DNA of 64,000 nucleotides from Rubripirellula sp. (lineage in GTDB: Bacteria > Planctomycetota > Planctomycetia > Pirellulales > Pirellulaceae): assembly GCA_965216875.1 (NCBI GenBank), contig OZ244207.1, positions 1,088,001 through 1,152,000 on the forward strand, written 5' to 3'. A program made the translations under genes and the position numbers. The notes beneath the pieces were generated by a model, which saw only the letters and a list, made by a program, of their open reading frames with translations, made no database searches and was not told the origin of the DNA. Below are positions 16,528-61,563 of the stretch, one piece after another. The first letter of the stretch is position 1. Every line of letters begins with the position of its first letter.

Positions 16528-16598
16528 GGATGTCAAAGTTACTGAAAGGAAAACGTTTAGTTCAATAAAGGCGATTGCTCGCCAGATTCTCTATCTGC

Positions 16599-18332: not shown

Positions 18333-18399
18333 TTTGATCAACCTCTATAAGAACGCGTGATGCGTCAGTATGTACGTTTTCTTTGGTGTTGTTTTGTAT

Positions 18400-19653: not shown

Positions 19654-19707
19654 GTTCCGAAATCGATAAAAGGTTTCGCAAAAGTTGAATGGGTCTTTGG
19701 AAATGCG

Positions 19708-20989: not shown

Positions 20990-21046
20990 GGTTTCAGTTT
21001 GGTTTCAGTTCGCAAAATGACGGTATAGACGCGTTTCCGCGGCCTT

Positions 21047-22339: not shown

Positions 22340-22403
22340 TTTCGTTAAGCAAAAAGTTGTTCAATAAAATGGATGTATGGTTTGCCGTAGGCAGCGTCGC
22401 CAA

Positions 22404-23819: not shown

Positions 23820-23868
23820 GGTTACTCTCTAGGCCGCAAAGCCGTCGATCTTCTTTGCTCGCTAGTGA

Positions 23869-25272: not shown

Positions 25273-25348
25273 AGTTTTTAGTGCTTAGAAAACTTGAAAG
25301 GTAAAAGTTTGTATTGGTGTGCGACGTCAAAGCCTGAGTGCTTCAAAC

Positions 25349-28300: not shown

Positions 28301-28696
28301 GTGATCGGTGTTTGGTTCGATCTTGATCGGACGACCGTCAAAACAGGTGACCAGCAAACTGTAGACGCGGCCAGCCAATTCGATATTTGTCGCACGCGAA
28401 TAGGTTTCGCCAGGCACTCGGCCTTCTGGGCGAAGCACAAACGGTTCAATCGTCTCTTCGGGGTAGCGGCAACCGGCGACGCCAGCCAGCGCGAACGATG
28501 CACCCATCAATTGCATCCAGCGACGGCGCGAAACTCCCTCTGGGAACTCCGAGGCGGCAACCGGAAACTCACGGTGCAGGTAATCCTGAAACTCTTCCTG
28601 CTGATTCAATTCAGCAAGGCTGCGCCAATAACGTGGCTTTGTCTCTTCAGTGGACAGAGCGTCTGTGTTTGACGGGGCCGATTCGCTGGAAGTCAT
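25349..28696 (-). CDS. actB: Alternative complex III ActB (molybdopterin-oxidoreductase-like + 4Fe-4S domain)
   Basis: YWRSL...[12 protein letters not shown] internal Tat signal; FANNGWLQE; Fe-S motifs [37 protein letters not shown] and MEKCTYC. Confidence 0.96.
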
Positions 28697-28762
28697 ATCG
28701 AAAACGGACGTTGAATTGATAAACGAATGTAATGAACGGTTAACGAAAGGTGCGTTGCGGCT

Positions 28763-29452
28763 TTAGCGGTGACAGACCGCACAGTGCACTTTCGGGTTGA
28801 TTCCCTTTTCCTCGCGAGCTTGTTTCGCGAAAGCCTCTTGGTCCCAATCCTCTGGTGGTTCCCAATCGAGCTTGGTCACGTTTTCGACTTCGCGAAGGTG
28901 AGGGTCGGGGTTGCGGTGACAGGTAATGCACCATGCCATCGAGAGTTCTTCGTGCTGGTAAACCACTTCCATTTGGTCGATTCGACCGTGGCAGGTTTTG
29001 CAGCTCACGCCCGAGTTCACATGTGCGGCGTGGTTGAAGTAAACGAACTCAGGAAGGTTATGGACGCGTTTCCACGCCATGCTCTTGCCCGTTTCCCAAC
29101 TCTTGTGGATCGGTGCAAGCTTTTGGCTTTCCGGATGCACGGCCGCCAGCGCGGTCAGGCCTTGATCGTTTGCCGGACTGTGACAATTGACACAGGTCGC
29201 CGTCGGCGGAATCGCCGCGTGAGCTGCGTCGAAGACGGTGTTGTGGCAATACCGACAATCCATCTTCAACTGCCCTGCGTGAATCGCATGACTAAACGGC
29301 ACCGGCTGCTCAGGCTGGTAACCAATGTTCAACGTCTTGGGGTCTGTGATCAAACCGCCCATCGCCAATGCGTAGACGCCTCCGCCTAAGGCTGCAATTG
29401 CCAATAGACCAAGGAATGGATTGACCCACCGAGGAAACAGAAACCGTTGCAT
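28763..29452 (-). CDS. actA: Alternative complex III ActA pentaheme cytochrome c
   Basis: Five CxxCH motifs (CRYCH, CVNCH, CKTCH, CITCH, CAVCH); QPVPFSH and VYFNH. Start trimmed to MQRFLF. Confidence 0.94.
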   Translation of the reverse strand: MQRFLFPRWVNPFLGLLAIAALGGGVYALAMGGLITDPKTLNIGYQPEQPVPFSHAIHAGQLKMDCRYCHNTVFDAAHAAIPPTATCVNCHSPANDQGLTALAAVHPESQKLAPIHKSWETGKSMAWKRVHNLPEFVYFNHAAHVNSGVSCKTCHGRIDQMEVVYQHEELSMAWCITCHRNPDPHLREVENVTKLDWEPPEDWDQEAFAKQAREEKGINPKVHCAVCHR

Positions 29453-45852: not shown

Positions 45853-47955
45853 TCAGTCTTTGCGTACGATGAATTCAAAATTATGGGTGCCTTCCCCGAG
45901 CGCTACCTTCGAAACGGCAACGCGAAATCCGCCTGCGGCTGAGAGCGAATCTGGGATTGAAGCTTTGAAGGTTGCCGAATTGTTTTCGTGCTGAGCGACA
46001 AAGGTCACGGCGACCGGTTGATCTTCCTCATTCTCAGTACGCGAAATCAGCCCATTGATTTCCGCCGCGGGAATGGGGAATTCGGTCCAGGCGCCTTCGC
46101 TCGTTTCGGTGAGCAGGTGAAAGGTGATCGTGCCATCGGAGATCGGCATGACTTCGGCGTGAAACAGTTGCTCGCCTGTTTGATGAGTGGTGTGGCCGAT
46201 CGCTACGATCTGGCCTCCGTGAGGCGCGTCGGCATGCCGATGCCCATGATCATGTGGGTGCGAGTGCGCTCCCTCAAAGTCGTCGTGCTCGTGGTCATGA
46301 GCGACACCGTCGGCATGAACATGACGGTGCTGGTGTTCGACATCCTCTTGCGTGTTGATGCTTTGATTCAAACGCGTTTCGTGGGGCGAGCGGTCTTGAT
46401 CGCGGTAGGACCGAACCCAACGTGTATTGGTTTTCAGCAGGTCGGAAACGAGGGCTCGCGTCGCCTCGATGTCGACCGGGTCATGCGCAAGTTCGTGTTC
46501 GAGGGCTTCAAGCTTCTTGCGAATCAAATAGCCCTGCATCCGTTGATAGGGTCTCAATTCACCGCGTCGAATGAGCGTTCCAACCTCGAGTCGACGGCTC
46601 CATTCGTCCCAAATCGGAATCCAGAACATTGCATGTTCAGCGTTGCCGCTATTGGCGGCCGAGAGCGTTTCTGCGCGTGCAACCTTGATCTCTTCGAGCG
46701 ATTCCTCGGCCGACGGATAAAACGCATAGCACATTACGATGCTGAGCGCAATCAGGCCGACGAGCATCGTGGCGCCAACGGCTTGCGGCCCAACGTTCCT
46801 GTCAAACGAACCGACGCGTCCTGCATCTTTTCCGGCCGATGCGTTCCAGGATTCCAGCTTGGCCTCGTCGAGTCCGAATGCTCGAAACAGAAGCCCCAAC
46901 ACGACCAACAACGCCATCGCGCTCAACGCAACGGCCTCACCGATGTCGATGTCCTTTTTGAGCTTGTCAGTGATGAGTCTCGACGAAAGTGTATCGAGGT
47001 TGTGAACCGGGTTGGTGTAGATATCGAACGCGTGCGTGTGGTCAAACGGTTCGGCACCGGGTGGGAAAAGAGGTTTGTTGATGGCGTAGGCGATGCCGAC
47101 GACGATCAGCAATAGCGAGCCTAGCCAGATGCCGACGGAGCGACCGCCGAAGGTCTTGCCGAACCATATGAGGGTTGCAAGGTTGGCGCCGGTGCCAAGT
47201 ACCAACAAAACGAATGCCGCCCCTGGCGAATTGGCGTGTTGGAACATCATGCCAAGCTGACTCATTGCCAACATCGGCGTTGCGTAGGCTGGCAGAGCAA
47301 CCGCGGTCATCTTGGCCGGCGCGAGCCAGTCGTCGCGATTGACTTCACTTTGCAGCGTTCCCCACGGAAGCACGGCGGCAAGGAGCACCAATCCCAGGAG
47401 CCCCACGATTGCCCAGCCGCCTGATCGACCAGCCAATTCGCGTGTGATTTGGACGAGAATTGCGAGCAGGCGTGTGACGCCAATCACCTCGCTGTCTTTC
47501 ACGTCGTCGGCCCGATCGTCTTCGGATTGGGATACACGCCGGTCCCATACGACGCCGACCAAAGTCACAACGATCAATGATCCGAATGCAAAGAAAAGGA
47601 TCACGTAGGGTCGCGCCAGCGTCAGCCCATAAAGCAGCGACAGCGGATTGAACAGCGGTGCGGCGAGTGCGAACGCACTCATTGCACCCGGCTTGATGCG
47701 ACAGCGCCGCATCTCAAAAAGGATGGGCAGAACACCGATCGAGCAGACGGGCAACAGCATGCCGACTGCCCAAGATTGCGGCAGGCTTCGCAAAGAATCA
47801 CCGCCAAACAGCTTACGCGTGCCCTCTTTGCCGAGGTAGTAGCGAAGGACAGCGGCGATCAGCAAACCGACCAGCAAGGTTGGCGTTGCTGAGATTGCGC
47901 CTTCGAGCAGACGGATGAATCCGCCCACGGTCGCTTTGGTCAACCAATCGCTCAT
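45853..47955 (-). CDS. DUF318/ArsP-like permease fused to His-rich and soluble C-terminal domains
   Basis: [18 protein letters not shown] and [12 protein letters not shown]; many TMs; [10 protein letters not shown]...HPHDHGHRH followed by a PHGG domain. Confidence 0.8.
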
Positions 47956-48659
47956 GAATCACCCTCGACTTTGTCGCTAGGGTGCTCGTGGTCATCATGG
48001 TCGTGGTCGTGGCCATGATCGTGATCACCGTGCGCATGATCATGATCATGATCATGATCATGCCCGTGTCCGTGCTCGCCGTGATCATGCCCGTGCTCGC
48101 CGTGGGGATGTCCATGCTCGTGCGAATGCCCATGGTCGTGATCGTGCCCATGGTCGCCGTGATCATGCCCATGCCCATGATCGTGATCATGATGATGGTG
48201 CCCGTGAGGCTGGAACCGACCGGCCCGTCGTTCGTCCTCCGGCAATTGGCTCCATGCAGCGTCGATCAACACACATAGGCTCTCGGCCTTTTGAACGCTC
48301 TCGTCGTCCCAAGTGCCATCGTTGTCGAGCAGACGAAGTCTCAACGATTCGCTTGCTTGGTAGATCGGATCCCACTGCTTTTCGGGCATGCTTGTGTCGG
48401 CTGCAAACTCAGGCGTCCACGAAACCAAGTCAACCAACTCGGAGGCCGCTTCTTCGCTCTTGAGGTTCGCGAGCCGCCGGCGGATCTTTGTTGACGTGTC
48501 ACCAAGGCTCTCGGGCCAATGATGAGGAGTGTCGTGGCTGTGATCGTGCAGCGATGTCTTCTCTGGGTCGCTCGAGCACCCGCCGGCGCAGACGGCGATC
48601 GCAACCGAAAAAACGATCGCGAGATTCAAAGGGAAAGATGTTCGATTGCTGGGCATCAT
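47952..48659 (-). CDS. His-rich putative lipoprotein
   Basis: Lipobox-like [18 protein letters not shown]; ~70-aa His/Asp/Gly tail. Overlaps both neighbours by ATGA. Confidence 0.8.
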
Positions 48660-49627
48660 CGGTACTCTGGTACTGGTACGTCGTCCATGATCTTTGAGAT
48701 GACGCTCTCGACGTCGCCGCCTGTGGTGAGCAATCGGACGGACAAGACGGGACGGGCGACATGTGCAATGTCGCTGGGCGTGACAAAATCTCGCTGATTC
48801 ACGACGGCCCAAGCTTGGGCGATGCGTTGCCAGTGCAGCATGCCACGGGGACTGACGCCAAGTTGAATCGAAGAGTCGTTGCGTGTCGCTTCGACGAGAT
48901 CGACAAGGTATTCGCGAACGCGCGGGTGGACGGTGATTCGCGAGCTGTGTTGTTGCAGCCGAGCAAGCTCATCAAGCGGCAACACAGGTTCGAGGTCCAA
49001 GTTGTCGTGCGTGCCGCTCGCGGCAGACTCCAAAATCTCGAGCTGAGCGGAGCGATCGGGATAGCCAATTTCGAGCTTGATGGAGAAGCGATCGAGCTGG
49101 GCCTCGGGCAACGGGTAAGCGCCGTGCGAGTCGATTGGGTTCTGTGTCGCGATGACAAAGAAGGTGTCGGCAAGCGTGTGCGGCACAGCGTCAATGGTGA
49201 CTTGCCGTTCGGCCATCGCTTCGAGCAACGCACTTTGCGTTCGCGGGGTGGTGCGATTCAGCTCGTCGGCCAGCATCACATCAGCAAAGACAGGGCCCGG
49301 GTGAAACTCGAACTCGCGAGATTTTTGGTTAAACAGGTTGAACCCCGTCACGTCCGTTGGAAGCAAGTCGGGCGTGCACTGGATTCGTGCTAAACGGCCA
49401 CCGAGACAGGCCGCCAACGCCTTGGCCAGCGTCGTTTTTCCTGTTCCGGGAAGGTCATCAAGCAAGAGGTGACCACGAGCGAGCAAGCAGGCGATCACGA
49501 GGTCGATTTGATCCGATTTGCCTAGCAGGACACGTCCGAGTTGCTGGCGGAGTGCGGCGAGGTGGTTTTCCAAGTCTTGCGCTTGAACTGGGATCGGCGT
49601 TTCTTGTTCTTTTGTCATAGCGTTCAT
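48656..49627 (-). CDS. moxR: MoxR family AAA+ ATPase
   Basis: [43 protein letters not shown] and LPEAQLDRF. Confidence 0.95.
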
Positions 49628-52062
49628 GCGCGGACTCCTTGTTGCGAAATCTCCTCAAATGTGCCCCGCGAGATGTAGCGAGTCGTGATCTGTCGGACGA
49701 GCAGATTGGCTGGGGCGGACCAGTCTGCGACGACCTTGCCGCCAAAGACGAGACGGTCAGCGGCGTTGCAGCATTCAACAGCGCTCGCGGCGAGTTGATC
49801 GTCGCTCCGTGTAAGCAAAAGCAACCAGTCGCGCTGAGGCATTCCCGTACGTCTAGGTTTACCCGCCAAGACCGCGCGCCATTGCAGGATTCCAAGCAGC
49901 ACTCGAACACGTTGTCGATCCGGAAGCACCCGACCGAACAACCATGCACTTCGAGCGGCAAGTTCAAACCAAAGGACGCGGGTGAAGTAGACAAACACGA
50001 TCAACAATGCGATCGACAGAGCTTCTTTCCAATGTGCTGCGGCATACCGTTTGGCCAACAACCAATTTGATGGATGGTATTTCGGTTGCCGATAACCCGG
50101 GGTTGGCTCGACTTCCATCCAGCGTCCGTCTTTCAGTTGAACCTCGGTCCAAGTGTGGACGTCTTCGGCGACAACCGAGGCATGGCCCTGGCCAACATCG
50201 AGGGCGCTGGGGCGAACATAGAAACCAGAGACCAGTCGTGTGTTCAAGCCGATGGCTCGTCCCATTTCGGCCGCTGCCGTGGCGAACAGGTGGTCGCCAC
50301 CACGTTTGGATACGAAGAAACGTTCAAGCGGGTCGTCGCTATCGGAGTCGGCTTGACGATCAAATTCAAACTCGTCGCGAAGGTGTTCGACGATCGCCTG
50401 CAATTGCCGGTACTCGTTCGTTTCGCCGGCGGTCAGCTCCTTTGCCAACTTAGCAGCCAGAAGGCGGCCTGCGGTTTCCGTTTTTTGATCGACCGGTTCT
50501 TGGTTTCGATTCAAGCGGCGAATCTTCGGAAGCGATTCGACTTGCTTCAAGTAGGCTTGGCGATCAGCCAACGCATTCTCTTCGAGCAAGTCATCTTCCA
50601 TCACCTTCGATGCCGCCATGTGAATGATCGTCAGTGGCGGGATCTTGACGCGGCCCGGCATGTAAAGTGAACCGTCGTCTTCGATGCCAAAGAAGTCACG
50701 TCGCTGGATATCCTTGATGTAGACACCGCCGGTCATCATCGGAGCCGGAATGCGGGTCGAATCGAGACGCATGACCTTGAGGATGCCGCCATGGCGAAAG
50801 AGTTCCTTGCCCTTGGCGAGTCGGCTGGCTTGTTCTGGGGAAAAAAACCAATCCTCTTCGCCGAGCTTCACGAGCTTCAACTGTTCTCGTTTCCAACTCC
50901 TGTCTTGCGACCAAAGGACGCCATCAAAGGTGTCGTAGCGATTCATTGCCAACCGAATGCCGGTCGGACCGATCCATTGCACGACAGCGGGCTCTTTGGC
51001 GTCACTGAGGTGTTGGTGGGGAATCGGTTTGTCGCGCGACGTCGAAAAGGAACTGCCGCCACGCTCGCTCTTTGCAGTACGCTGGTGCGCCTCGATGATC
51101 TTCTCGGGCGTCATCCCCTGACGTTTTTCCCAGATCTGTTTCAGCTTGGGTTGTCCGAGCGAATCACTGAACATGTCGTAGAGTGTCGATTCGGTCGACT
51201 CCAAGAAGAGTTCCGATTCAACGGCGCCAAACGACTCGGCGTGGTCCTTGGCAGCGATCGCCGCATCGCCACTCCCAACGCCCGATCGAGCGGCGGGGTC
51301 GGACCAGCTTGAGCCACCACTGGCTGGCATGATGCCCCAGGTGAATCGATCGGCTTTGGAAGCGCGACCATGGATCATCCAGCCGCCAAACACGAACACC
51401 GCGAGTCCAATGAGCACGGTCAACGGTTGAACTCGAACGCTTCGTCGCACTTGATCGGGCGTGCATGACGAAACGCGTTCCCAATGATTGGCGACCATGT
51501 GCCAAAGGCAAAACGTGATCCACAGGAGCGCGGGCGTCAGTGCTCGATTGCTGTCCGAAATCATTGCCGTGAACAGAATCAGGAACCCACTGGTGACCAC
51601 CGAGAGGGCCAGGTTGCGACGTGAACGAGCACAGAGTGCAAGTGCGAGTGAGCCGACGCCCAGTGTGGCGATCGCCGACATTTCAAATGGAATCGGCGAG
51701 CCGAGTTGGCGGGCAACGACCGCAAAGAACAGCGGTGTGCCGAGCGATCCGGCAATGCAACCCGTCCGAAGCCGACTCGGCTTGTTGTAGAGAAAGATGA
51801 GAGCGATGGTGAACGCAGCAATCGATATCAGCTCGGCTGCACACCACGCTCGTGATTCGAATGTAAAACGAAGTAGCCAAACGCCGCCGAGTCCAATGAA
51901 AGCGAGCACGGCGCATTCGATTGCGCGTCGAAGGTCGCCGACGCTCCCATCGCTTGCACTGCCAACACTTGCGCGCTCGACGCGGCTTGCCGTGACCGTC
52001 GATTCGGTCTCGGTGGCGTTGGGTTCGCTTTCTGGACTGCGTTCAGGCAGCGATTGGGACAT
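49624..52062 (-). CDS. Membrane transglutaminase-like protein (DUF3488/TgpA-like architecture), catalytic Cys replaced
   Basis: About 6 N-terminal TMs; YDTFDG..W; DPLERFF...GGDHLFATA...RLVSGF...HTWTEV...W...EPTPG. Confidence 0.85.
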   Translation of the reverse strand: MSQSLPERSPESEPNATETESTVTASRVERASVGSASDGSVGDLRRAIECAVLAFIGLGGVWLLRFTFESRAWCAAELISIAAFTIALIFLYNKPSRLRTGCIAGSLGTPLFFAVVARQLGSPIPFEMSAIATLGVGSLALALCARSRRNLALSVVTSGFLILFTAMISDSNRALTPALLWITFCLWHMVANHWERVSSCTPDQVRRSVRVQPLTVLIGLAVFVFGGWMIHGRASKADRFTWGIMPASGGSSWSDPAARSGVGSGDAAIAAKDHAESFGAVESELFLESTESTLYDMFSDSLGQPKLKQIWEKRQGMTPEKIIEAHQRTAKSERGGSSFSTSRDKPIPHQHLSDAKEPAVVQWIGPTGIRLAMNRYDTFDGVLWSQDRSWKREQLKLVKLGEEDWFFSPEQASRLAKGKELFRHGGILKVMRLDSTRIPAPMMTGGVYIKDIQRRDFFGIEDDGSLYMPGRVKIPPLTIIHMAASKVMEDDLLEENALADRQAYLKQVESLPKIRRLNRNQEPVDQKTETAGRLLAAKLAKELTAGETNEYRQLQAIVEHLRDEFEFDRQADSDSDDPLERFFVSKRGGDHLFATAAAEMGRAIGLNTRLVSGFYVRPSALDVGQGHASVVAEDVHTWTEVQLKDGRWMEVEPTPGYRQPKYHPSNWLLAKRYAAAHWKEALSIALLIVFVYFTRVLWFELAARSAWLFGRVLPDRQRVRVLLGILQWRAVLAGKPRRTGMPQRDWLLLLTRSDDQLAASAVECCNAADRLVFGGKVVADWSAPANLLVRQITTRYISRGTFEEISQQGVRA

Positions 52063-53257
52063 AGCCAAACTCCTGCCAGAACGGACTAAGTTGTTTTCCA
52101 AGCGGCTCGTCGCATCGAATCAAAATGCGACGAGAGGTGCTGGATGAACGGGACGTGGCATTGGGGTCGATGATGTCGACCGCGACGAGATCGCCGGTTT
52201 GGCCACCCCGTATTTCGATTGCGATTCGTTGTCGCGACGGTGTTTGCGTTGTTGTTTCGTCAACGCCATCAACAGGCACGCGGGCCAGTGCGTCAAGCAA
52301 CTGGCGGCGACCAAGGTGCCCCGACGCTTGCCGAACGGCTTGGTCGCCAATGGAAACTCGCATCGGTATGTGTGCACCTTGTAAGTGACACACGATACTC
52401 GCGGCGACGCGAATACGATCGGCAAGCGAGTCTCTGGTTTCTCCTTTTCCCACGCTGGGGTCGACGTGCAGATCGATTTCAACGTTCTGTGGACCGCCAC
52501 GTTCGGTCACGATGATCTTTTCGGTTCGAGCCGTCTGGGCCCAGTTGATTTGTCTCGGCGAATCGCCACGTCGAAAGTCGCGAACGCCGACAAAGTCTCC
52601 GCTTCGGCCACCACGCTCGCCGTCACCGATTTCGGCGTTCACCTTTCCGGTCAACGGGCAGGCACCAGCAATGTCGTGGACTTCCGGCCAAACGGTCATC
52701 GGTTTGACCGAGCGCAGCTCGCGACGAGCCGTCCAGATTCCGAAGGGAAACGAGCAGGCGATCTTGGGCGTTTGAACGGGATAGTGCCCACGCAGCGAAG
52801 GCTGCACGGTGATCGCGTAATCGGCAACACAGATCGGCGGCACATGGGAAAGAGCCACGACGGGAAGGGACTCGTCACCTTCACAATCGAGGTAGCCCTC
52901 AACGGCCAGGCCCCAAAGCGGCACCGGGATTCGGTTTCTTACCGAGAAGATCATTCGGCACGACGTGTTCTCGTGGACCGCGTCGACTTCGGGATGCAAC
53001 TCACAGCTCGAGGCCCAAACCGCAATCAGCGGCCAGACCATTCCCACCACAATCACGCCGGCGAGCGCAGCAGCGATCGTCCAGCCAATGGGATTGGCGT
53101 ACATCCCAACGATCACGCTTGCGGCCGTCGCAAGCACGAACCAACCAATGGGTTCTTTCAACCAATAAACAAATCGATTTGCCCAGGGACAGAAGTCGGT
53201 GGTCAGCATTCGAGCTAACCAACTCTGCTTCTGGTGGGCATCGCAAACCGTTGCCAT
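52043..53257 (-). CDS. DUF58 domain protein
   Basis: RGHY...FPFG and DFVGVRDFRRGDSPRQINWAQTAR; two N-terminal TMs. GAGGTG RBS before ATG 53257. Confidence 0.9.
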   Translation of the reverse strand: MATVCDAHQKQSWLARMLTTDFCPWANRFVYWLKEPIGWFVLATAASVIVGMYANPIGWTIAAALAGVIVVGMVWPLIAVWASSCELHPEVDAVHENTSCRMIFSVRNRIPVPLWGLAVEGYLDCEGDESLPVVALSHVPPICVADYAITVQPSLRGHYPVQTPKIACSFPFGIWTARRELRSVKPMTVWPEVHDIAGACPLTGKVNAEIGDGERGGRSGDFVGVRDFRRGDSPRQINWAQTARTEKIIVTERGGPQNVEIDLHVDPSVGKGETRDSLADRIRVAASIVCHLQGAHIPMRVSIGDQAVRQASGHLGRRQLLDALARVPVDGVDETTTQTPSRQRIAIEIRGGQTGDLVAVDIIDPNATSRSSSTSRRILIRCDEPLGKQLSPFWQEFGYVPIAA

Positions 53258-53367
53258 CACACACCTCAACAAGAAATCCGAAAAGGGGCGCACACGGGCT
53301 CAAGGTAGATCTGCGTTCAACAAGGAACGTCAGCAAGGGAGCTTCAAATGTGCGCAGCCGATAGATT

Positions 53368-53802
53368 TCAGGCGCAAGGTGGTCCGCGCGAAGAAAGCGC
53401 CGACAAGAAGACTTGCTCCGGCGCAACGTCCGAGCAAGGAAGGGTGGTTTCGAGCGTTTCGAGTGGTTGCCAGAAGAGGGTGGGGGTCGCCGCTAGCGAA
53501 CCTGCGCGAGTGGCGAAGAAGCTCTGGCAAATCGAGCAGCTGTCGCTGTCATGATCGTGACCATGCTCGACCGGGGATTCTTCGTGCCCTGATTCGGAAG
53601 CTTCCGTCGAATCGCAGTGATGATGGTGACTACAGCACTGATGTTCATGCTCCTCTTCAACGGGAGCCAAATCGCCCACATGAGCCGCGTGTGGATGGTC
53701 ACAGCCATGGTGCCCAACGTGCATCCAGCCAGCCGCGTTGCCCACCAAAAGGGCCGCAATAGCAAGGAAACTCGTTAGTTTTGAGGCGTGGCGCACAGGC
53801 AA
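53368..53802 (-). CDS. DUF2946-like leader protein (signal peptide, His-rich, CxxC, C-terminal RGPP)
   Basis: Hydrophobic N-terminus; HQCCSHHHHC; HDHDSDSCSIC; ends SSRGPPCA*. Start codon (TTG 53802 or nearby GTG) uncertain. Confidence 0.82.
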   Translation of the reverse strand: MPVRHASKLTSFLAIAALLVGNAAGWMHVGHHGCDHPHAAHVGDLAPVEEEHEHQCCSHHHHCDSTEASESGHEESPVEHGHDHDSDSCSICQSFFATRAGSLAATPTLFWQPLETLETTLPCSDVAPEQVFLSALSSRGPPCA

Positions 53803-53836
53803 AAGCTAGAAAGACCGATCAATACCGCTAAGTTGG

Positions 53837-53876
53837 ATTCTTGGCAGCATTTACGTGGATGTCAACAATGTTGTTC
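53837..53876 (-). promoter_or_regulatory. Putative sigma70 promoter of the DUF2946-DUF58-MoxR operon with overlapping imperfect palindrome
   Basis: Minus strand TTGACA (53865-53860)-N17-AAGAAT (53842-53837); CAACAATGTTG inverted repeat overlaps the -35. Confidence 0.45.
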
Positions 53877-53981
53877 GCGCGGCGGGGCGAATTCACACAG
53901 ACTGAACATTTGACAACCCGTAAAGAGTCTCTCAACGCAAGATTTTGCCGATTGCCATTAGTCTCCGTGGGGGGGAGGCCC

Positions 53982-54441
53982 GTAGGCCGGATCAAGGAGC
54001 GACAGCGACACAGATCCGGCATTCTCGAACGTCCCCTGTAGTTTTCGCCGCTCTCCCCCTTCGCTGCGGTTGCAATCCATCCACCAACTCCGACCCTGGT
54101 GAAGCCACCGAGAGCACAGGGTTCACCGAGAGATTGAGTTGACCTGGAAGCGCGTTGGCAAGGGCCCGAGGCCTCACGGCCGGCGGCTCACTGGTAGGCC
54201 GGATCAAGGAGCGACAGCGACACAGATCCGGCATTCTCGCACGTCCCCTGTAGTTTTCGCCGCTCACCCGCCCTTCGCTGCGATCGCAATTCATCCACCA
54301 AGTCTGCCCCTGCTGAAGCCACAGAGAGCACAGGGTTCACCGAGAGATTGACCGCCGCATGCTCTTCTCCGTGAACGCTGTGCTCTCTGTGGCTCGCCTT
54401 CTCTTGATCTCCCCATGTGACGCCTCCCCCATGTGACGCCT
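53982..54441. repeat. Mosaic repeat cluster at the distal end of the cassette array
   Basis: ~157-bp unit duplicated at 53982 and 54194, each starting with REP-A and ending GCCACMGAGAGCACAGGGTTCACCGAGAG; REP-B between the copies; inverted copy at ~54365-54395; 16-bp tandem CCCCATGTGACGCCT. Confidence 0.9.
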
Positions 54442-54474
54442 GTTGGGTACCAGCGTCGATCGCGAAACCCCGGG

Positions 54475-55026
54475 TCAGCACCAGGTCCATTTCGGATCTT
54501 CATAGATTAGGCAACGGAAACCGAACACGGACAGCCAGTAGGAGCGATGAGCGACACCCGGTCCCTCGGTCTTAGCCGCATGGTCGCAGGCGACGACGAG
54601 CGGGCAGGGCACCGCGGGGCCACCGACGTAGAACCATGGATCGTCGAGTTGTTCGGGGCGGTTCAGCTCGACGGGATCAAAATCAAACCGATTGACCGCT
54701 CGGTTGGGCGATGCGGCGGCAAGTGTTGCTCCCATTTTTCCGGCAAGTTCGGATTGAAGAGTATGGCTGGTCAAAGCGGTCACGATCCAGAGTGTCAAGT
54801 AGGTCGTGGCGAGTGCGACAGCTGCGTAGGCATTGCGACGCATGGAAACGTGCATCGCCGCTGCGAAGCTGAGGTGGATCAGAGAGAACGCGATTCCAAT
54901 CATGCCTTCCATCAATACCATCGCCACCACGATGGCAACGCCAATGGATGTGAGAAGGAACGAACGGAGCGAGAAACGCGATCCGATGGGACGATCGTTG
55001 CTCGATGCGGCGTTACTCTGATTCAT
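54475..55026 (-). CDS. Hypothetical membrane protein (probable terminal cassette gene)
   Basis: 183 aa; RFSLRSFLL N-terminal motif then about 3 TMs. No clear downstream attC. Confidence 0.65.
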   Translation of the reverse strand: MNQSNAASSNDRPIGSRFSLRSFLLTSIGVAIVVAMVLMEGMIGIAFSLIHLSFAAAMHVSMRRNAYAAVALATTYLTLWIVTALTSHTLQSELAGKMGATLAAASPNRAVNRFDFDPVELNRPEQLDDPWFYVGGPAVPCPLVVACDHAAKTEGPGVAHRSYWLSVFGFRCLIYEDPKWTWC

Positions 55027-55160
55027 CGTCTACCGAGGTTCATCATTTGCCGTGTTGTGTTCCACGCTAAGGCGTTGCTTCATTCAAACGCGATGTTGTT
55101 CACAACGGGGCGGTGATGTTCAAAACCGGGCGGTGATCGGAAAGCGGTGTAGTCTCATCT

Positions 55161-55251
55161 AAAGAATGTCAGCGATCACACGGCAGCGACGAGCGATCAT
55201 CTTTATCATTTTTGTCGATTTCGCCACCCGTAGTGCACGACATGGTTAAAC
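55161..55251 (-). other. Degenerate attC-like site 9
   Basis: Minus strand GTTTAAC-CATGT-CGTGCAC...GTGTGATC-GCTGAC-ATTCTTT; 91 bp; R' GTT mutated to ATT. Confidence 0.55.
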
Positions 55252-55481
55252 AGGCGCACCTTGCTCATATACTCGCCTCCCGCACGTGCGAGTGCCTCGT
55301 CCACTTCTGTGAACGCGGCATGTGCCAGTTCGGTATCGGAAAGGTCAGCGGCGTCTGCGGACAGCGTCGGTGTGATTGTAGTCATCGCTTTCGGCGGTTG
55401 TCCTCGTTCCTGCTCATGGAGCGAGCATCCGATGAGTGCAGCGAAAGAAGCGGCAGTCTGGATCGAGCCATCGTTTCGGTC

Positions 55482-55572
55482 GGGTAACACGGATCAGCGG
55501 GGATGGGCGAAAGACGTATAGGCAGAAGAAAAAACGGACCAGCTGTTCTCCGTGTGCATCCGTTGGTTCGTC
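55482..55572 (-). other. Degenerate attC-like site 8
   Basis: Minus strand GACGAAC-CAACG-GATGCACACGG...CCGCTGATCCGT-GTTACCC; 91 bp. Confidence 0.65.
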
Positions 55573-55595
55573 GATTTCTTCGTGTGCAACAGACT

Positions 55596-56132
55596 CTACG
55601 TCGTTTTCGGATTGGATTTGAGTTGAGAAATCACTCCCGTCCGCCACATGTGTTTTGCAGATGGTGATGCAAATTCCGGGAACGACGCTTTTGCAATGTC
55701 CTTGAAGTATTGTCCGACCCAATGCCAAGCTTGGTAGGACTCGCTATCGCAGTAGAAGCCCCACGATGGATTGAGCAAGTCGATCATGAGATCCAGAGTG
55801 TCATCACCAGCGCGGAGTTGAATCGCAAAATCCTGCCCCGAGGGCAGGCGTTGAAAAATTGGATTCCCGTTGTAGAACGCGCGTGGTTCGTTCGCAGCGG
55901 CTCGGATCAAATCCAGATTTTTCGCGGTCAGTGGCGTTCCGGTAGCAAGGATCGTTGCGTCCGAGAGTGGACCATGTGAGCGTTTGCTGATGATGAAAGT
56001 TTCGCCATTCGTTGCGCTGTTTACGATGCGGCGCGTACGCGGGCCAAGTACAGAATCGATATCAAAATCGGGCGATCCGAACTCAAAGACAATTGTGCCT
56101 GAATCAGACAAGTCAACGCTCCTGGTGCACAC
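55596..56132 (-). CDS. Hypothetical protein (cassette gene)
   Basis: Lies between two attC-like sites. The ORF-track start (56189) falls inside the attC, so GTG at 56132 is preferred. Confidence 0.65.
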   Translation of the reverse strand: MCTRSVDLSDSGTIVFEFGSPDFDIDSVLGPRTRRIVNSATNGETFIISKRSHGPLSDATILATGTPLTAKNLDLIRAAANEPRAFYNGNPIFQRLPSGQDFAIQLRAGDDTLDLMIDLLNPSWGFYCDSESYQAWHWVGQYFKDIAKASFPEFASPSAKHMWRTGVISQLKSNPKTT

Positions 56133-56145
56133 GTTTAATCTGTGC

Positions 56146-56236
56146 GGCGGACGAACCGCGTCACCGGGGCCCGCGAGTCGAGTTTCCATTAATAGATCCG
56201 AAACAGTCGGCTTCCGTGCGCACGTGATGGTTCCGC
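56146..56236 (-). other. Degenerate attC-like site 7
   Basis: Minus strand GCGGAAC-CATCA-CGTGCGCACGG...CCGGTGACG-CGGTTC-GTCCGCC; 91 bp; R' GTT mutated to GTC. Confidence 0.65.
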
Positions 56237-56438
56237 CATTCTACACGCAGCAGAAGCGAGCGAAGGCAGTGGACATTATTCTAACGCGGTGGCGACGGAC
56301 CAACGATATCGCACGAGCTCATCACATCGAAAGCATCGTTAACGGCTCCCCAAGCGTGCGGTGAAACCCCGTCGATGACAACAGCACGCACAGCATCGTG
56401 TGTCAGCATTCCCGCTTCCGGCCCAGGTTCGTCAAACG

Positions 56439-56681
56439 TTAGCGGTACAGAATCCTGCGTGTGACAAGATGACCAATGATTGCGTCTCCCCGTTTGATGC
56501 AAACGCCCGACGTGCCCGAGAGTGGATTGCGATCATCGATCGAGCATTCGTATTCTCAGACCTGGTCACCGTCGCTCAAGAGTGTCCTTAGACGCTACCA
56601 GTCAGACTGGACCGCTCCCCAGTCACGGTTGCAATCTTCCTGCGAAAGTTGGGATGAGAGAATGAGCCACGAGTAGTCCAT
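56439..56681 (-). pseudogene. Decayed cassette gene with two in-frame stops
   Basis: MDYSWLILSSQLSQEDCNRDWGAVQSDW*RLRTLLSDGDQV*EYECSIDDRNPLSGTSGVCIKRGDAIIGHLVTRRILYR*; starts ~20 bp after an attC R' box. Confidence 0.5.
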
Positions 56682-56698
56682 ACATGTTCGCTCTGTTG

Positions 56699-56788
56699 AT
56701 GGAACGTTACGAAGCACACGGCGCCGACCGATACCGTGAACTCAAATCGAAACCAATTTCGCCGCTCGTGGGCATTCGGTCGTTATCG
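56699..56788 (-). other. Degenerate attC-like site 6
   Basis: Minus strand CGATAAC-GACCG-AATGCCCACGAGCGGCG...CGCCGTGTGCTT-CGTAAC-GTTCCAT; 90 bp. Confidence 0.65.
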
Positions 56789-56936
56789 GGTATTCGGCAA
56801 TCCGTCAGCCCTGCGTCCAATCGTCATCGTGGGGTTCAAAGTCTCCTGGTTGCCGTCCTTCGGTGCACGACACAACCATCCGTGACGGATCGTTGGACGC
56901 AGGCGGGGCATCCTCTGTCATGAGTGCTCCTCTTTC

Positions 56937-57017
56937 GTAGAACCTCCACAATCACCCGGCACGCGTGATTGAGAATCAAGTTGAAAATGCGTGCGCGAGC
57001 AGATTGGGTTGTTATCG
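56937..57017 (-). other. attC-like site 5
   Basis: Minus strand CGATAAC (contains the TAA stop of the upstream gene)...CGCACGC...GCGTGCCGGGTGATT-GTGGAG-GTTCTAC; 81 bp. Confidence 0.72.
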
Positions 57018-57572
57018 GATTTTCGGGTGGATTAGGATCAGCTTGCTGCGAAAATGAAATGCGCGGCCAGCGTAAATTGTTTTTGCAGGTGTGTCGGCAG
57101 GGTAGCGAGGACTGCCCGAGAATTCGCCAGTTTCATATGCGAGCACTTCGAACTCGCGTCCTAAGAAACGAGCTGCAAGCTCAGACCGCGTGGGTTTTTG
57201 GCTCGGATCGACGGCTTCGGCGAAGGCGTCGTAGTTTGGCCGGAACGGGATTGCATTGCGACTAAAATAGTCGATATCAAAGTCCATTCTGATCGGCGTG
57301 GAGATAGGCTGATTGTCAACTCGAGTGACGAGGACACGGTAGTCGTCATCGGAATCGGTCATCTTGTTGTTGGGGTTAGTGACGAGCTTGCACGTTATCG
57401 GTGCGACGTACCCAAGAGGCTTACCGAGCTTTCCCGTAACGCTCTCGCCGGTGAGCGACCGTACGTCAATCTTGTCCTGTTCAGCTGTCTGCGCAATCGA
57501 GAGCCTCGGAATAAGTAACCCCAGCAGTAAGCCGACAAACGTTTTGAGAATCGTGTCCTGCATTGGCTTCAT
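57012..57572 (-). CDS. Hypothetical exported protein (cassette gene)
   Basis: 186 aa; signal peptide; stop codon lies inside the R'' box, as is typical of cassettes. Confidence 0.78.
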   Translation of the reverse strand: MKPMQDTILKTFVGLLLGLLIPRLSIAQTAEQDKIDVRSLTGESVTGKLGKPLGYVAPITCKLVTNPNNKMTDSDDDYRVLVTRVDNQPISTPIRMDFDIDYFSRNAIPFRPNYDAFAEAVDPSQKPTRSELAARFLGREFEVLAYETGEFSGSPRYPADTPAKTIYAGRAFHFRSKLILIHPKIR

Positions 57573-57573
57573 C

Positions 57574-57642
57574 CGATAACGATCGGGATCACACGGGAAT
57601 CAAAACGAACCACTGCCGCTCCGCAACATCGCATGCTTCGCA
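57574..57642 (-). other. Degenerate, internally shortened attC-like site 4
   Basis: Minus strand TGCGAAG-CATGC-GATGTTGCGG...CCGTGTGATC-CCGATC-GTTATCG; 69 bp; R'' AAC mutated to AAG. Confidence 0.62.
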
Positions 57643-57649
57643 ACACACT

Positions 57650-58183
57650 TTACGGACCAGCATCAGCGAAGCAATACAAGTCATCTTCATCTGTGACAAC
57701 TTTGTATTCGACGACACCGGACCAGTCGTACGTTTGCGCAAGATGCCGATCGGAATCGAGTGGAAGTCCGGTGCGAAGGGCAGTGTTGATGTGGCTGATG
57801 AAAGCGTCCGCAGCTTCAGCGTGTGCGGTTGCGTCTGAGTCGCCGCATGATTCCAGCCAGAAGATTAGGCTAAATGCGGCCATCATGGTTGCGCGCAGGC
57901 TTGAAGCCGGCGCGGTATCACCGATTGGCAGGTCAAGATCGTTCGACCCGTAGTGAACATCATCAAAAAGAGCATTCGTCGCATTGGCGCCATCAAGAAC
58001 TCGCTTGCGTAGGGATGGGTCGATGTTCTGCTTCGCCGACAGTTCGGCTGCGGCGAGCAGCGCATTATGGATGCGCTGCAGATTGTTGCGCTGTCGTTTC
58101 AGTCTGCGAATAGGGTTGCATTGCCTCAGTGAACGCTGGGACGCGCGAATCGCAAGAAACAGACGAAGAGGCCAGTCATCCAT
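57650..58183 (-). CDS. Hypothetical protein (cassette gene)
   Basis: 177 aa ORF that fills the space between two attC-like sites. Confidence 0.7.
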   Translation of the reverse strand: MDDWPLRLFLAIRASQRSLRQCNPIRRLKRQRNNLQRIHNALLAAAELSAKQNIDPSLRKRVLDGANATNALFDDVHYGSNDLDLPIGDTAPASSLRATMMAAFSLIFWLESCGDSDATAHAEAADAFISHINTALRTGLPLDSDRHLAQTYDWSGVVEYKVVTDEDDLYCFADAGP

Positions 58184-58203
58184 TTGTTATGCGTGTCTCT
58201 ACT

Positions 58204-58295
58204 GGCGAACGGCAGTCATCACCGAGCACTCGGGAGTTGAGCATCCAATGCGTGAACACCGACCACCGGTCCTCCGTGACATCCGATGGTTATCG
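58204..58295 (-). other. attC-like site 3
   Basis: Minus strand CGATAAC-CATCG-GATGTCACGGAG...CTCGGTGATG-ACTGCC-GTTCGCC; 92 bp. Confidence 0.78.
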
Positions 58296-58453
58296 GCCGT
58301 TCTGTTCTAGGACGTGAGCTCAACCGTTCCGCCTGTGTCGCTCGGCGGATCACCCAAATGATACCCATTCTCTGGTGGTGCCGCAGTGTAGTCGATCCCG
58401 GCTCTATGCAGCGCCGACATTGCACGAAACGCGATGTCGGCCCAACGCTGCCT

Positions 58454-58542
58454 GGCGAACGGCCGTGATCAGCGGGCACGGCCCATGTGGTCAACATTTG
58501 TAACAGCCCCATGCCGTGCTCCGTTGCATCGCATGGTTCTGC
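58454..58542 (-). other. attC site 2 (intact)
   Basis: Minus strand GCAGAAC-CATGC-GATGCAAC-GGAGCACGGC...GCCGTGCCC-GCTGATC-ACGGCC-GTTCGCC; 89 bp. Confidence 0.86.
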
Positions 58543-58547
58543 GGTTT

Positions 58548-58958
58548 TCACTTCCGTGTCGTAGCGTCAATCCGCCCGAACTCAAATTCATCTTCGTGGC
58601 AGTAAAACACCAACCAATTGTGGTCGAGCGACAAGATCAAGGCGTCATCACGGCCAGGGCATAAGACGTCACGCCAATGGGTGAGGATGAATTCGACCGA
58701 CGTGTCGAACACAGAGTCCAGCCCAAAAATGATACGCAATTCCGTTCCAGCGCACCGATCAGCAAGCCATTGATCGACTAAGTCGGAATCACCTGCCGCA
58801 TCGCATTGCTCAATCTGAGTAACGGATGCGTCGTTCAATCCATAGCGATTTGTTGACGACTGTCCAATCTGCGATTCATACGCGTTCGCGGCGTTATCCG
58901 GTGACAGCCACCGAATCGAGTCACCGAAGTGTTCGTACTGGTCGCGGCGAAAGTTCAT
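58548..58958 (-). CDS. Hypothetical acidic protein (cassette gene)
   Basis: 136 aa bounded by intact attC sites; Trp/Asp-rich (HWRDVLCP..DD...NWLVFYCHED). Confidence 0.78.
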   Translation of the reverse strand: MNFRRDQYEHFGDSIRWLSPDNAANAYESQIGQSSTNRYGLNDASVTQIEQCDAAGDSDLVDQWLADRCAGTELRIIFGLDSVFDTSVEFILTHWRDVLCPGRDDALILSLDHNWLVFYCHEDEFEFGRIDATTRK

Positions 58959-58986
58959 GTTGTCGAGGAGTTACATCCAAACAATC

Positions 58987-59077
58987 GCAGAACGACCGCG
59001 ATAACCGAGTCGCGGCGATTGATTTTCCATTGTCAAAAACGAGGACTCCGCGACTTCGGTTCATCGCATGGTTCCCC
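58987..59077 (-). other. attC site 1 (intact)
   Basis: Minus strand GGGGAAC-CATGC-GATGAACC-GAAGTCGCGG...CCGCGACTC-GGTTATC-GCGGTC-GTTCTGC; 91 bp; two unpaired bases in the left arm. Confidence 0.88.
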
Positions 59078-59081
59078 GCCA

Positions 59082-59822
59082 CTATTTGGTTCGTTCGCCG
59101 AAGCAGCGTTCCATTTGATTGACTATATCAGAAGGAATAGCTGAGCCGTGAAGAAAGGAAAGCTCAAGGTAACCGTTGCCGTTCGCAAGAATATAGTTTT
59201 GCTCTGTGATACCCCAGTAGGGTCCTTGCCAGCGGTACGGTTTCGCAGGCGGTTCTTTGGTATGCTGGACAACGTCAATCACAATCCCGTTCGACTTCGG
59301 TCCAACGACCGCGACCGTATCGTGACCGTATTCTCCATCTTCAAGTTCGGGGTGCAACTGAAACTCCCGACTTCGGCTACGAATTGATAACGAGGTGTCG
59401 TTGATTTCAATCGTATCCAATGGCATGTCGTGAGACGTCATGAATTTCTCGAGTCGTTGTTTCAAGTCTACCAACCCATTGACGCGTCCCTTCACCGCCA
59501 TTTTATCAACCGGACCGTTCCAGTCATTGATGTCTGCCTCGCCTTGCATGTTGACATAGACATGCTTTTTTGAACCATCAGAGCACCCGTAGAAAATGTT
59601 CCATGCTCCACCTTTGCCGTCACCCTCGGCGTTGCCGTACAAACTAACGCCAATTGGATAGTATCGTGACGCGTCATCCGCCAGAAGTGACTCGCCCTTC
59701 TCCAATGCGGCTGCAAGCGTCACGGGCGGGCGGTTAGTATTGACCCAACGGTAGAGCGATCCGTATGCGATCGCGGAAACGAGAGACAGTGCGGCAGCGA
59801 TTGCGAGTCTGGTTTTCAGCAT
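59082..59822 (-). CDS. Hypothetical exported/membrane-anchored protein (first cassette gene)
   Basis: 246 aa; hydrophobic N-terminus; ATG 17 bp after the attI-like GTT; stop 4 bp before R''. Confidence 0.8.
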   Translation of the reverse strand: MLKTRLAIAAALSLVSAIAYGSLYRWVNTNRPPVTLAAALEKGESLLADDASRYYPIGVSLYGNAEGDGKGGAWNIFYGCSDGSKKHVYVNMQGEADINDWNGPVDKMAVKGRVNGLVDLKQRLEKFMTSHDMPLDTIEINDTSLSIRSRSREFQLHPELEDGEYGHDTVAVVGPKSNGIVIDVVQHTKEPPAKPYRWQGPYWGITEQNYILANGNGYLELSFLHGSAIPSDIVNQMERCFGERTK

Positions 59823-59832
59823 GGCTTTAGTC

Positions 59833-59852
59833 GGGGAACTTATTTATCAGCT
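59833..59852 (-). other. attI-like recombination site
   Basis: Minus strand ...CTGATAAATAA-GTTCCCC; GTTCCCC is exactly complementary to R'' (GGGGAAC) of the first attC; no attC-type palindrome upstream. Confidence 0.68.
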
Positions 59853-59993
59853 GGTGAACGGGTGAGAATACGGCGTGCTGGGTGTTCTCGCCGAGTGGAC
59901 CTTCGGTACGGTCGGTGACACGCGCCTTGATCCTCGTATTCTCACTGGTCGCTCCAGTATTCTCACCGGTTAGGTGGTAACCACTCTGGGGGT

Positions 59994-60022
59994 ATTCTCG
60001 CCGTTGACATTTGGGTTGTCAA
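59994..60022 (-). promoter_or_regulatory. Putative Pc-like promoter facing the cassette array
   Basis: Minus strand TTGACA (60022-60017)-N17-GAGAAT (59999-59994). A second TTGACA lies on the plus strand at 60004-60009. Confidence 0.5.
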
Positions 60023-60064
60023 ATTGTTGGATCGCGCCGGGCTCACTCTTATTGGGCAATGATT

Positions 60065-60606
60065 GGCCACGAACAACGCGGGAAGAAACGCATAAGGATT
60101 CTTGCGCTCGGCTTGTTGTGTTTTTTTGTGTTTCTTGTGGCTCACTCATCCATTAGGCGAAAAGGACGAACCACGAATTGGTCGAATGACACGAATGAAG
60201 AACTGTTGCGCGAGTGCTATTGGTGAGGTTCTCTCGGGAAGGCTGCCACGAGAAACACGAGAAGGCACAAAGAGATAGGAAGGCCCGGCCGCTTACGCGT
60301 TCACGGCTCAGTGGAGTTCGTTCATGTTCTGGCGAAGGTTGCTGCGGATGCGTGAGTAAGTGTCCGTCGGCTCATGGTTGGGTTCGGTCGTGCCGGATCT
60401 GTGTCGCTGTCGCTCCTTGATGCCGGCCTACGAGAATGGATGCGTGAGTAAGTGTGGGCCCGCGGCTAGCGCCGTCGGCTCAGGGTTGGGTTCGGTCGTG
60501 CCGGATCTGTGTCGCTGTCGCTCCTTGATGCCGGCCTACGAGAATGGATGCGTGAGCAAGTGTAGGGCCCGCGGCTAGCGCCGTCGGCTCACGGGGTGGG
60601 TTCGGA
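60065..60606. repeat. Mosaic repeat cluster (triplet-type motifs, REP-B, 108-bp REP-A/REP-B tandem)
   Basis: REP-A at 60391-60431 and 60499-60539 alternating with GGCCCGCGGCTAGCGCCGTCGGCTCA; AACCACGAATTGGTCGAATGACACGAAT at ~60169; GCCACGAGAAACACGAGAAGGCACAAA at ~60245 and an inverted relative at ~60116-60141. Confidence 0.88.
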
Positions 60607-60618
60607 CGCACGTGTTGG

Positions 60619-61563
60619 CTAAAACGCTATGTCGGTTACGACGGGGCGGTGGTCTGATAGTTGCGTGTCGATCGCTTGGTAGTTGTTGAAAGTCCATGTG
60701 TCGGGGATGACGATCCAGTCGATCAATTGATGCGGGCTTTCGGACGTGAAAGTGAGCTGTGGCTCGCTCGGAGCCTCGATTGGCCGGCGAAGAAACGCTT
60801 CCGACTTGTCGATGAGCTCGATCGCGTTTCGTCCCGCTTCGTCTTTCTGGTGATTGGGAAAACCTTCGGGCGTCGAGTTGAAGTCTCCTGCAAAGATGAC
60901 TGGCAAACCAGAGTTCTTTGCCAATGTCGTCAAGATCTCGATCGATTCACAACGAATCGTTTCGCTCCGATGTGAGAGATGGATCGGGACGATTCGAAAG
61001 GGCTGCTTGGGGTGGTGGACAACGCAAACCATCCCCCGTTTGCGACCAGCGATGAACGATTCGACCGCAGAAACGGGCGGGTACTCGAGCGGCTGCAACT
61101 CTCTTAGTGGGTAACGTGACAGGACTGCGTTGCCAAAGTTCCAGGTCCAACCTAGAAAACGTGCTTCCACATTTCGCTGCCGCGCCACGTAGGGGTATCC
61201 GGCCTTCAGCGCGATCTGTTCGGCTTGATCAACGTGATGACTCCAGCTGCAATCGAAGTCGACTTCGTTGAGAACCACAACGTCAGCATCGGTTTCGGTT
61301 AGAAGCTCGGCGATTCGGTCGATCCTGGCGAGTCGTGTGACGGCCGGTTCGCCGTTCCAATTCTTCGGAACAAGGCCTCGTGTATGCGCGATGTTGTAAC
61401 AAACCAAACGCAATCCCTCGTGTCGGCCCGGTTTGGCATGAGGCGCGTTGACCGAGAGCTGATCAACGCGATTGAAGAGACTTCGGGCTCGAGACCAGAG
61501 TGTGGGCAGGGCGACGAGGAACAGGATTGCCAGGATGCAAAGTAGGATTCGCTTCGGTCGCAT
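60619..61563 (-). CDS. Endonuclease/exonuclease/phosphatase family protein, membrane-anchored
   Basis: CYNIAH, DVVVLNEVD, GNAVLSRYP, AGDFN, IDWI and SDHRPV. Confidence 0.92.
   Translation of the reverse strand: MRPKRILLCILAILFLVALPTLWSRARSLFNRVDQLSVNAPHAKPGRHEGLRLVCYNIAHTRGLVPKNWNGEPAVTRLARIDRIAELLTETDADVVVLNEVDFDCSWSHHVDQAEQIALKAGYPYVARQRNVEARFLGWTWNFGNAVLSRYPLRELQPLEYPPVSAVESFIAGRKRGMVCVVHHPKQPFRIVPIHLSHRSETIRCESIEILTTLAKNSGLPVIFAGDFNSTPEGFPNHQKDEAGRNAIELIDKSEAFLRRPIEAPSEPQLTFTSESPHQLIDWIVIPDTWTFNNYQAIDTQLSDHRPVVTDIAF

Follow-up and report, generated by a model that had tools for sequence, protein, structure and literature searches.

Clusters of attC sites lacking an integron integrase (CALINs) and complete integrons are similarly frequent, and the consulted parts of two surveys name the origin and activity of the former as open questions (PMC4889954, PMC9024848). 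In these parts, CALINs are given four origins and discussed as cassette donors, with attI not searched since it is unknown for most integrons (PMC4889954), or are treated as degraded integrons (PMC9024848). Further partly consulted sources report that CALIN cassettes can be mobilized in trans (PMC9668308; 10.1101/2025.06.18.660453), that IntI1 recombines an attI located on a separate plasmid (PMC9668308), that insertion at attG sites has been shown (10.1101/2022.09.11.507474), and that the integrase of class 2 integrons can be non-functional (PMC8876359). The consulted parts of two other papers hold nothing on attI-headed CALINs (PMC8618304, PMC9229058), and our literature search, with supplements and most subscription papers outside it, returned no description of several Pc-attI copies served by one integrase. 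Here we analyze an integron cassette array in a stretch of 64,000 nucleotides (the window, C1:1088001-1152000) of the closed 8.26-Mb chromosome of the planctomycete Rubripirellula sp., whose genome is 99% complete. The array is real, retains attI and a Pc-like promoter, has no adjacent integrase, and is a CALIN by definition (at least two attC, no intI nearby). The reading we favor with reasonable confidence, based on sequence comparison, is that it is a satellite integron platform loaded in trans.

The cassette array of the window

Nine attC sites lie in series from 59077 to 55161, headed by attI at 59839; these and all features of the array and its head described below are on the minus strand. 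In the order of cassettes 1 to 9, the sites are at 59077-58987, 58542-58454, 58295-58204, 57642-57574, 57017-56937, 56788-56699, 56236-56150, 55572-55482 and 55251-55161. A covariance model trained on 30 attC sites, all from the complete integron A3 of the same chromosome and none from the window, was run over the 64 kb with filters off. It recovered eight of the nine sites (93 to 24 bits, E 2e-22 to 3e-4), and beyond these it gave only site 1 on the opposite strand and five rows at E of at least 0.34. The site it missed, 57642-57574, is only 69 bp long and has AAC changed to AAG; it was a seed of the position weight matrix (PWM) scan and hence has no independent detection. When the bottom strand was folded, the canonical R/L-box shape was seen by eye in the minimum free energy structure of six of nine sites, and the model matches also fall on the bottom strand. 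Folding energy alone was mostly non-significant (z at or below -1.9 in 2 of 10 folded sites) and is not used as proof. A candidate tenth attC at 56337-56446 was folded, had no covariance-model match and was rejected.

The cassette ends were tested by scoring the complementarity of the 7 bases at each cassette start to the cassette's own R''. Cassettes 1, 2, 5 and 8 of the window match 7/7, and the other five 4-5/7. Over the whole genome the score is 7/7 for 44 of 79 cassettes, compared with a mean of 4.6 and a maximum of 14 in shuffles. An open reading frame (ORF) stops within 23 nt of R'' in five of the nine window cassettes (1, 2, 4, 5 and 8), and cassettes 3, 6, 7 and 9 are fragments or pseudogenes.

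A first-pass annotation, made from the letters of the window, had described about nine attC-like palindromes as an integron signature, and the independent model bears this out for eight of them, with matches that are significant. The three cassette-end matches it quoted are all exact, with a fourth at cassette 8. Its statement that most palindromes directly follow the stop of a co-oriented ORF applies to five cassettes and fails for the four fragments or pseudogenes. The array limit it gave, 54475, is too distal: the array stops at 55161, and the 183-aa ORF at 55026-54475 lies beyond the last attC, has no attC detected and is not counted here as a cassette. Nor do the cassettes look like ordinary genes in a conserved order. 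In the 40 array loci of relatives, picked among the matches listed, the window cassette proteins are unmatched except for a weak match of 26% to cassette 5, and homologues of cassette 1 lie in other neighborhoods.

Four platform heads and one integrase

The genome has one match above the curated cut-off of the integrase profile TIGR02249, at C1:1815045-1816538, 667 kb from the window attI. It belongs to A3 and encodes an IntI of 497 aa without stops, which scores 413 bits over 1-315/315 of the profile and has the IntI additional domain readable in its sequence. The catalytic residues R-K-HxxR-H-Y are likewise readable and intact. The PWM scan for attC (score of at least 25) returned 77 sites genome-wide, of which 76 lie inside four arrays, and 0 in the reversed genome. 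Array A1 (attI 237359) has 13 sites, A2 (the window array) 9, one of them added by hand, A3 34, and A4 (C1:3542181) 21 at score 25 or above; the covariance model adds a few weaker sites beyond this set. A solo attC candidate at C1:4562261 lies within a coding region, has no model match and was rejected.

Each array is headed by a copy of a 184-bp Pc-attI core, and only A3 has intI. The search of the genome for intI and attI copies, one of the checks proposed in the first-pass annotation, thus gave a single integrase gene and three head copies besides that of the window. The cores differ from each other by 13-22 bases (7.1-12.0%), and the window head is a 92% copy of the core of A3. The likeness of all four platform copies ends at the attI GTT, with variable cassettes beyond, and the ends of the first cassettes match R'' 7/7 in three of four heads and 6/7 in A4. 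The window attI core (59833-59853, crossover G at 59839) is identical to that of A3. Upstream of it lies a predicted Pc-like promoter, TTGACA-17-GAGAAT (59994-60022), with a 10/12 match to the sigma-70 consensus; this pattern occurs four times in the genome, exactly once per platform head. Between 59862 and 59999, the short motif GAGAAYAC is found in four direct copies and one inverted copy, which are possibly accessory sites for IntI or a regulator.

The loss of intI is graded among the heads. While A3 is intact, A4 retains about 140 bp of the intI 5' end (88%) fused to the intI 3' flank (85%), and A1 and the window retain none. Between the window attI and the upstream gene there are REP-like modules only and no intI, as had been noted for 60.0-60.6 kb. 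Here, the intI 3' flank joins straight onto the -35 box at a deletion junction (60015-60075) that in this genome is common only to the window and A1 (87% over 61 nt). This flank matches the DNA past the A3 intI by 71% over 326 nt, and the proximal ~300 bp of the REP-like (repetitive extragenic palindromic) mosaic at 60039-60610 are colinear with the intI 3' flank of A3 (71%) and the heads of A1 and A4. Of the REP mosaic matches of at least 90 nt in the genome, 6/7 are at integron loci, whereas single modules have 7-186 blast matches each. Because A4 keeps the intI 5' end fused to the 3' flank, and A1 and the window keep the flank only, their sequences identify the three heads as deletion derivatives of an intI-bearing platform.

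All four platforms start, REP mosaic foremost, right past the stop codon of a gene with the same orientation. For the window this is a 314-aa gene of the endonuclease/exonuclease/phosphatase (EEP) family (60619-61563; PF03372, E 5e-19). A diverged remnant of an EEP gene 3' end (the last ~16 codons, with an internal ~20-bp tandem duplication) is found at 55080-55160, right behind the last attC, and forms the distal joint. Its best genome match besides itself is the end of the upstream EEP gene, with a DNA-level E of 0.22. The remnant may be the old gene end displaced by an incoming block, and its place behind the last attC suggests that recombination, within the EEP gene at one end and at an attC at the other, brought the block in. 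Neither the EEP gene nor the 183-aa ORF has a close orthologue in two congeners or in the genome contigs searched, and the empty locus was therefore not seen. Gene-end duplication as a general insertion mechanism, in which an integrative element restores the 3' end of its target, was rejected as it is seen at one of four arrays, that of the window. For the copying of platforms, recombination between REP copies and re-acquisition from relatives are both possible. A REP-associated transposase was considered as the mover and set aside: the genome has three Y1 transposase genes, none flanked by platform REP modules save for one 13-nt match. Cassette 10 of A1 (C1:243230-243470) has the left half of an attC fused, in mid-array, to another copy of the platform REP mosaic, a relic of a fifth platform.

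Probable loading in trans and its alternatives

A trace of movement between arrays is cassette 2 of A1, which is identical to cassette 2 of A3 in 587/587 bases. The identity begins and ends at the crossover points, the neighbors are different, and the preceding attC differs between the two arrays. Since the A1 and A3 cores differ at 22/184 positions and the cassettes at none, the sequences date the move long after platforms A1 and A3 parted. As A1 lost intI before splitting from the platform of the window, the most economical interpretation has the A3 enzyme placing the cassette in A1. Among the 79 cassette bodies there is one other full-length identity, an exact copy (458/458) of A3 cassette 23 (1801891) as cassette 3 (1813644), i.e., a duplication inside the complete integron; A3 also has a duplicate of 553 bp with 97% identity at 1791703-1791151.

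The window itself is likely fed in trans by the A3 IntI, because its attI core equals that of A3, two clean proximal cassettes sit on a decayed array, and the attC of cassette 1 is 94% like one attC of A3. Clean proximal cassettes comprise the first nine of A1, all at 7/7, and the first two of the window, with 93 and 67 bits versus 24-48 bits distally. A4 provides a natural dead-site control: its attI has A instead of G as the crossover base and two more changed core bases, and decay runs along the whole array. The first-pass annotation had offered loss of intI and loading in trans as alternatives. The deletion junction establishes the loss, the loading is likely, and the two are not exclusive, as an intact IntI is present elsewhere in the chromosome.

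In the picture we favor, a complete integron, made up of REP mosaic, intI, Pc, attI and cassettes, would have reached several places in the chromosome, either by copying or by renewed acquisition, with intI then deleted from the copies and Pc and attI retained. The sole remaining IntI, a diffusible tyrosine recombinase, would excise cassettes and insert them at any intact attI. The window array would then be an extra expression slot supplied from a genome-wide common cassette pool, and its two attI-adjacent cassettes would be recent insertions atop an old decayed array. The array is thus probably an acceptor and not just a relic. We infer from the sequence that IntI probably acts on the window attI today and that Pc may fire, as we do the mode of platform copying.

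Sequencing run X7 contains a related strain, with 42 differences over 1528 nt of flanking DNA. Its contigs hint that the window locus may carry another array there and are a lead for array turnover only. They cover 52500-55117, followed by 564 other letters, and 59964-60264 across the deletion junction with 15 differences. One contig has the attI core followed by 2476 letters unlike the window, and may be a paralogous platform. Several window cassettes are without cover in X7, gaps that prove nothing, and among the matches listed from X7 and other sequencing runs there was neither an excised-cassette joint or circle nor an RNA run.

Arrays were found by the covariance model in 7/7 relatives searched, and all six whose heads were examined have attI-headed arrays without intI. 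Each head sequence is genome-specific, is repeated before several arrays and ends at GTT; the platform DNA of the window was not found among 40 relatives, the heads being lineage-specific. A scan with motifs chosen by eye from the heads gave 35 rows, a denominator in which 3 chance matches of a loose G002 motif, 3 rows without a readable R'' and 2 mis-parsed G002 rows are retained. In 19 of the 35, the post-head bases and the next R'' match 7/7, and 15 of these 19 have no intI match in the upstream DNA covered, up to 2.5 kb. In G002, the same ~557-bp cassette (99.5-99.8%) with exact ends is found at an intI-less attI, at an array head beside intI and inside a third array. The attI end occurs 10 times in genome G001, alongside 6 intI matches of differing state, and intI remnants are seen at several heads in G001, G002 and G015. 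Three relatives, G006, G012 and G020, have Xer-like matches only and no IntI match, and 10/17 of their rows still match 7/7, which shows that platforms outlast the enzyme.

Other elements were observed at the heads of relatives. A 1.4-kb IS91-family transposase element with 99% identity between its copies occurs twice in G012 (L049:3021-4439, L050:2063-3480), each time placed precisely at the GTT of a different attI; it has cassette-like matching ends, in a genome without an IntI match. A GTACTC-type repeat-rich leader piece comes first behind attI at six heads (L040, L041, L044, L045 and L046 of G001; L067 of G002) and follows two unlike attI types in G001. Putative group II intron-type ends abut the attC R'' box at L030, L032, L035 and L036 of G002 and L042 and L043 of G001. 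An insertion sequence at L028:4090-5850 of G002 lies between the only near-complete intI of that genome and its array, and cuts the attI region.

Several observations weigh against loading in trans. The 587-bp cassette sits in A1 and not in the window, whose cassettes have no copy elsewhere in the genome. The decay trend of the window alone is non-significant (rho -0.62, p 0.10, n 8; end matches p 0.60). The kinship of A1 and the window rests on the 61-nt junction and on 2 versus 1 informative core sites, and repeated deletion at a microhomology is a possible source of the junction. Clean ends are no proof of current integrase activity, because the IntI-less G006, G012 and G020 also have 7/7 heads, and the 6 intI matches of G001 fit serial gain and loss of whole integrons.

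An alternative reading is that each array was a complete integron, loaded in cis by its own IntI, with a recent and separate loss of intI in every case, and takes up no more cassettes. Such a frozen state would account for the intI remnants at A4 and at several G001, G002 and G015 heads, for the clean heads retained in IntI-less genomes and for the damage to five of nine window cassettes; intI loss is also a proposed CALIN origin in the consulted part of the survey (PMC4889954). However, A1 and the window have accumulated 13% divergence in the junction common to them, which places the loss before their split, yet the A1 cassette has 0/587 differences from that of A3. We therefore regard a frozen array as unlikely. 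IntI-independent movement, through RecA-type recombination at attC that resemble each other or through replacement of whole arrays from relatives, with attI and Pc kept as a mere promoter, seems less probable still. While attC from separate arrays reach 94% similarity, fused half-site deletions such as A1 cassette 10 exist, and the EEP remnant suggests a block from another lineage, the identity of the common cassette starts exactly at G|TT behind differing attC, and the slot-1 cassettes abut attI exactly. The least probable of the readings, and one for which we see very little room, is a CALIN built by repeated insertion at attG or by a rearrangement that split the main array, with a promoter there by chance. 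The consulted part of one study demonstrates attG insertion for IntI1 and suggests it for small CALINs (10.1101/2022.09.11.507474). The last attC of the window does meet chromosomal DNA at a non-GTT point, and this reading may apply to the distal joint at 55167; it is refuted for the head, which is a copy of a Pc-attI core that A3 still has.

Cassette contents, surroundings and known integrons

Cassette 1 (58993-59839) carries a 246-aa ORF (59822-59082) with an N-terminal hydrophobic helix and no family, and an attC of 93 bits. Its predicted structure has a pLDDT of 83, a PDB search gave no match at E of 0.001 or below, and its Atlas score is below 0.9. There are 15 homologous proteins with 39-100% identity, and in all three loci fetched, two of which are the same sequence, the homologue lies directly behind an attC with other neighbors. 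Cassette 2 (58460-58993) has a 136-aa ORF (58958-58548) and an attC of 67 bits; its Atlas neighbors are CdiI-immunity-like and DUF2947 clusters (0.92-0.93, low recognition), a lead only. Cassette 3 (58210-58460) is 251 bp long with a start-less open frame that resembles the 3' end of a gene (attC 30 bits, ends 4/7). Cassette 4 (57580-58210) has a 177-aa ORF (58183-57650) before the shortened attC that the model missed, and cassette 5 (56943-57580) a 186-aa ORF (57572-57012) and an attC of 30 bits. Cassette 6 (56705-56943; 239 bp, 38-codon frame) is a probable deletion hybrid (24 bits, 4/7), and several stops break the frame of cassette 7 (56156-56705; 48 bits, 5/7). The ORF of cassette 8 (55488-56156; attC 40 bits) ends at 55596, and its true start is probably within the cassette rather than at 56189. 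Cassette 9 (55167-55488) is a fragment, and its attC, the last one (30 bits), has ATT in place of GTT as its right core. The first-pass annotation had recognized none of the cassette genes, and likewise the seven proteins scanned have no Pfam, NCBIfam or PADLOC match above cut-off; the 183-aa ORF beyond the array has one Pfam match, to DUF1275, below cut-off.

An Rfam search of the window gave no family, and no tRNA was found in it. A second REP cluster at 53980-54400 has the opposite orientation to that of the head. The reading frames at 15283-29452 we take to be an alternative-complex-III/cytochrome oxidase-like operon, and those at 45856-53802 presumably encode His-rich proteins next to a MoxR-DUF58-transglutaminase-like cluster; DUF58, the one family of these two gene groups scanned, scored just below cut-off. 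In A4, the last cassette carries an inserted ~190-bp repeat (C1:3525236-3525430) with 122 blast matches in the genome.

An integron expresses mainly its Pc-adjacent cassettes, and several Pc-attI heads mean several expressed slots per one regulated integrase. Tentatively, and with doubt slightly outweighing belief, we propose that planctomycetes of the Pirellulaceae type may have a distributed integron, in which multiplied promoter-attI docks are kept after intI loss and most CALINs are expressed, reloadable acceptors of one resident or passing integrase. If true, this origin and role of CALINs would be invisible to surveys, since attI is not searchable. The closed genome allows a direct test of CALINs as acceptors, with four near-identical attI, one of them crossover-mutated, one integrase, and one cassette in two arrays. 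A further product of the comparison is a set of attI sequences, absent from integron finders, for seven planctomycete genomes.

The window array is a known kind of element, with ordinary integron chemistry, in a layout not found in print. Like the CALINs of the surveys (PMC4889954; PMC9024848) it has at least two attC, no intI nearby and an IntI elsewhere in the replicon, the last being a feature of about half of the surveyed CALINs. However, these papers report attI as unknown or not detected beyond a few classes, and the consulted parts treat those CALINs as degraded or as donors without Pc, whereas the window array retains a Pc-attI copy native to its genome and the data speak for uptake. 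From the single or clustered attC lacking an integrase (SALIN/CALIN) at attG (10.1101/2022.09.11.507474), which share cassettes away from intI and placement by IntI in trans, it differs in its target, as attG is described there as a 3-base chance site and the window target is a full duplicated platform. Class 2 integrons with truncated IntI2 also combine attI and Pc without a working integrase in cis, and their Pc works; according to the consulted part of the source (PMC8876359), they are transposon-borne, inactivated by a stop codon and not by deletion, with few fixed cassettes and no multiple host-platform copies. The partly consulted work on Xanthomonas (10.1101/2025.06.18.660453) describes deleted or broken intI and extra CALINs at conserved loci, and mentions trans mobilization, but there intI loss accompanies frozen arrays, with no attI reported at the extra CALINs. 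The window array is comparable to sedentary chromosomal integrons (A3 and the Vibrio and Xanthomonas types) in its matching attC family, attI and predicted Pc, its cassettes of unknown function and its clean proximal and decayed distal parts, and differs from them in having no intI in cis and in being one of four platforms per chromosome instead of one.

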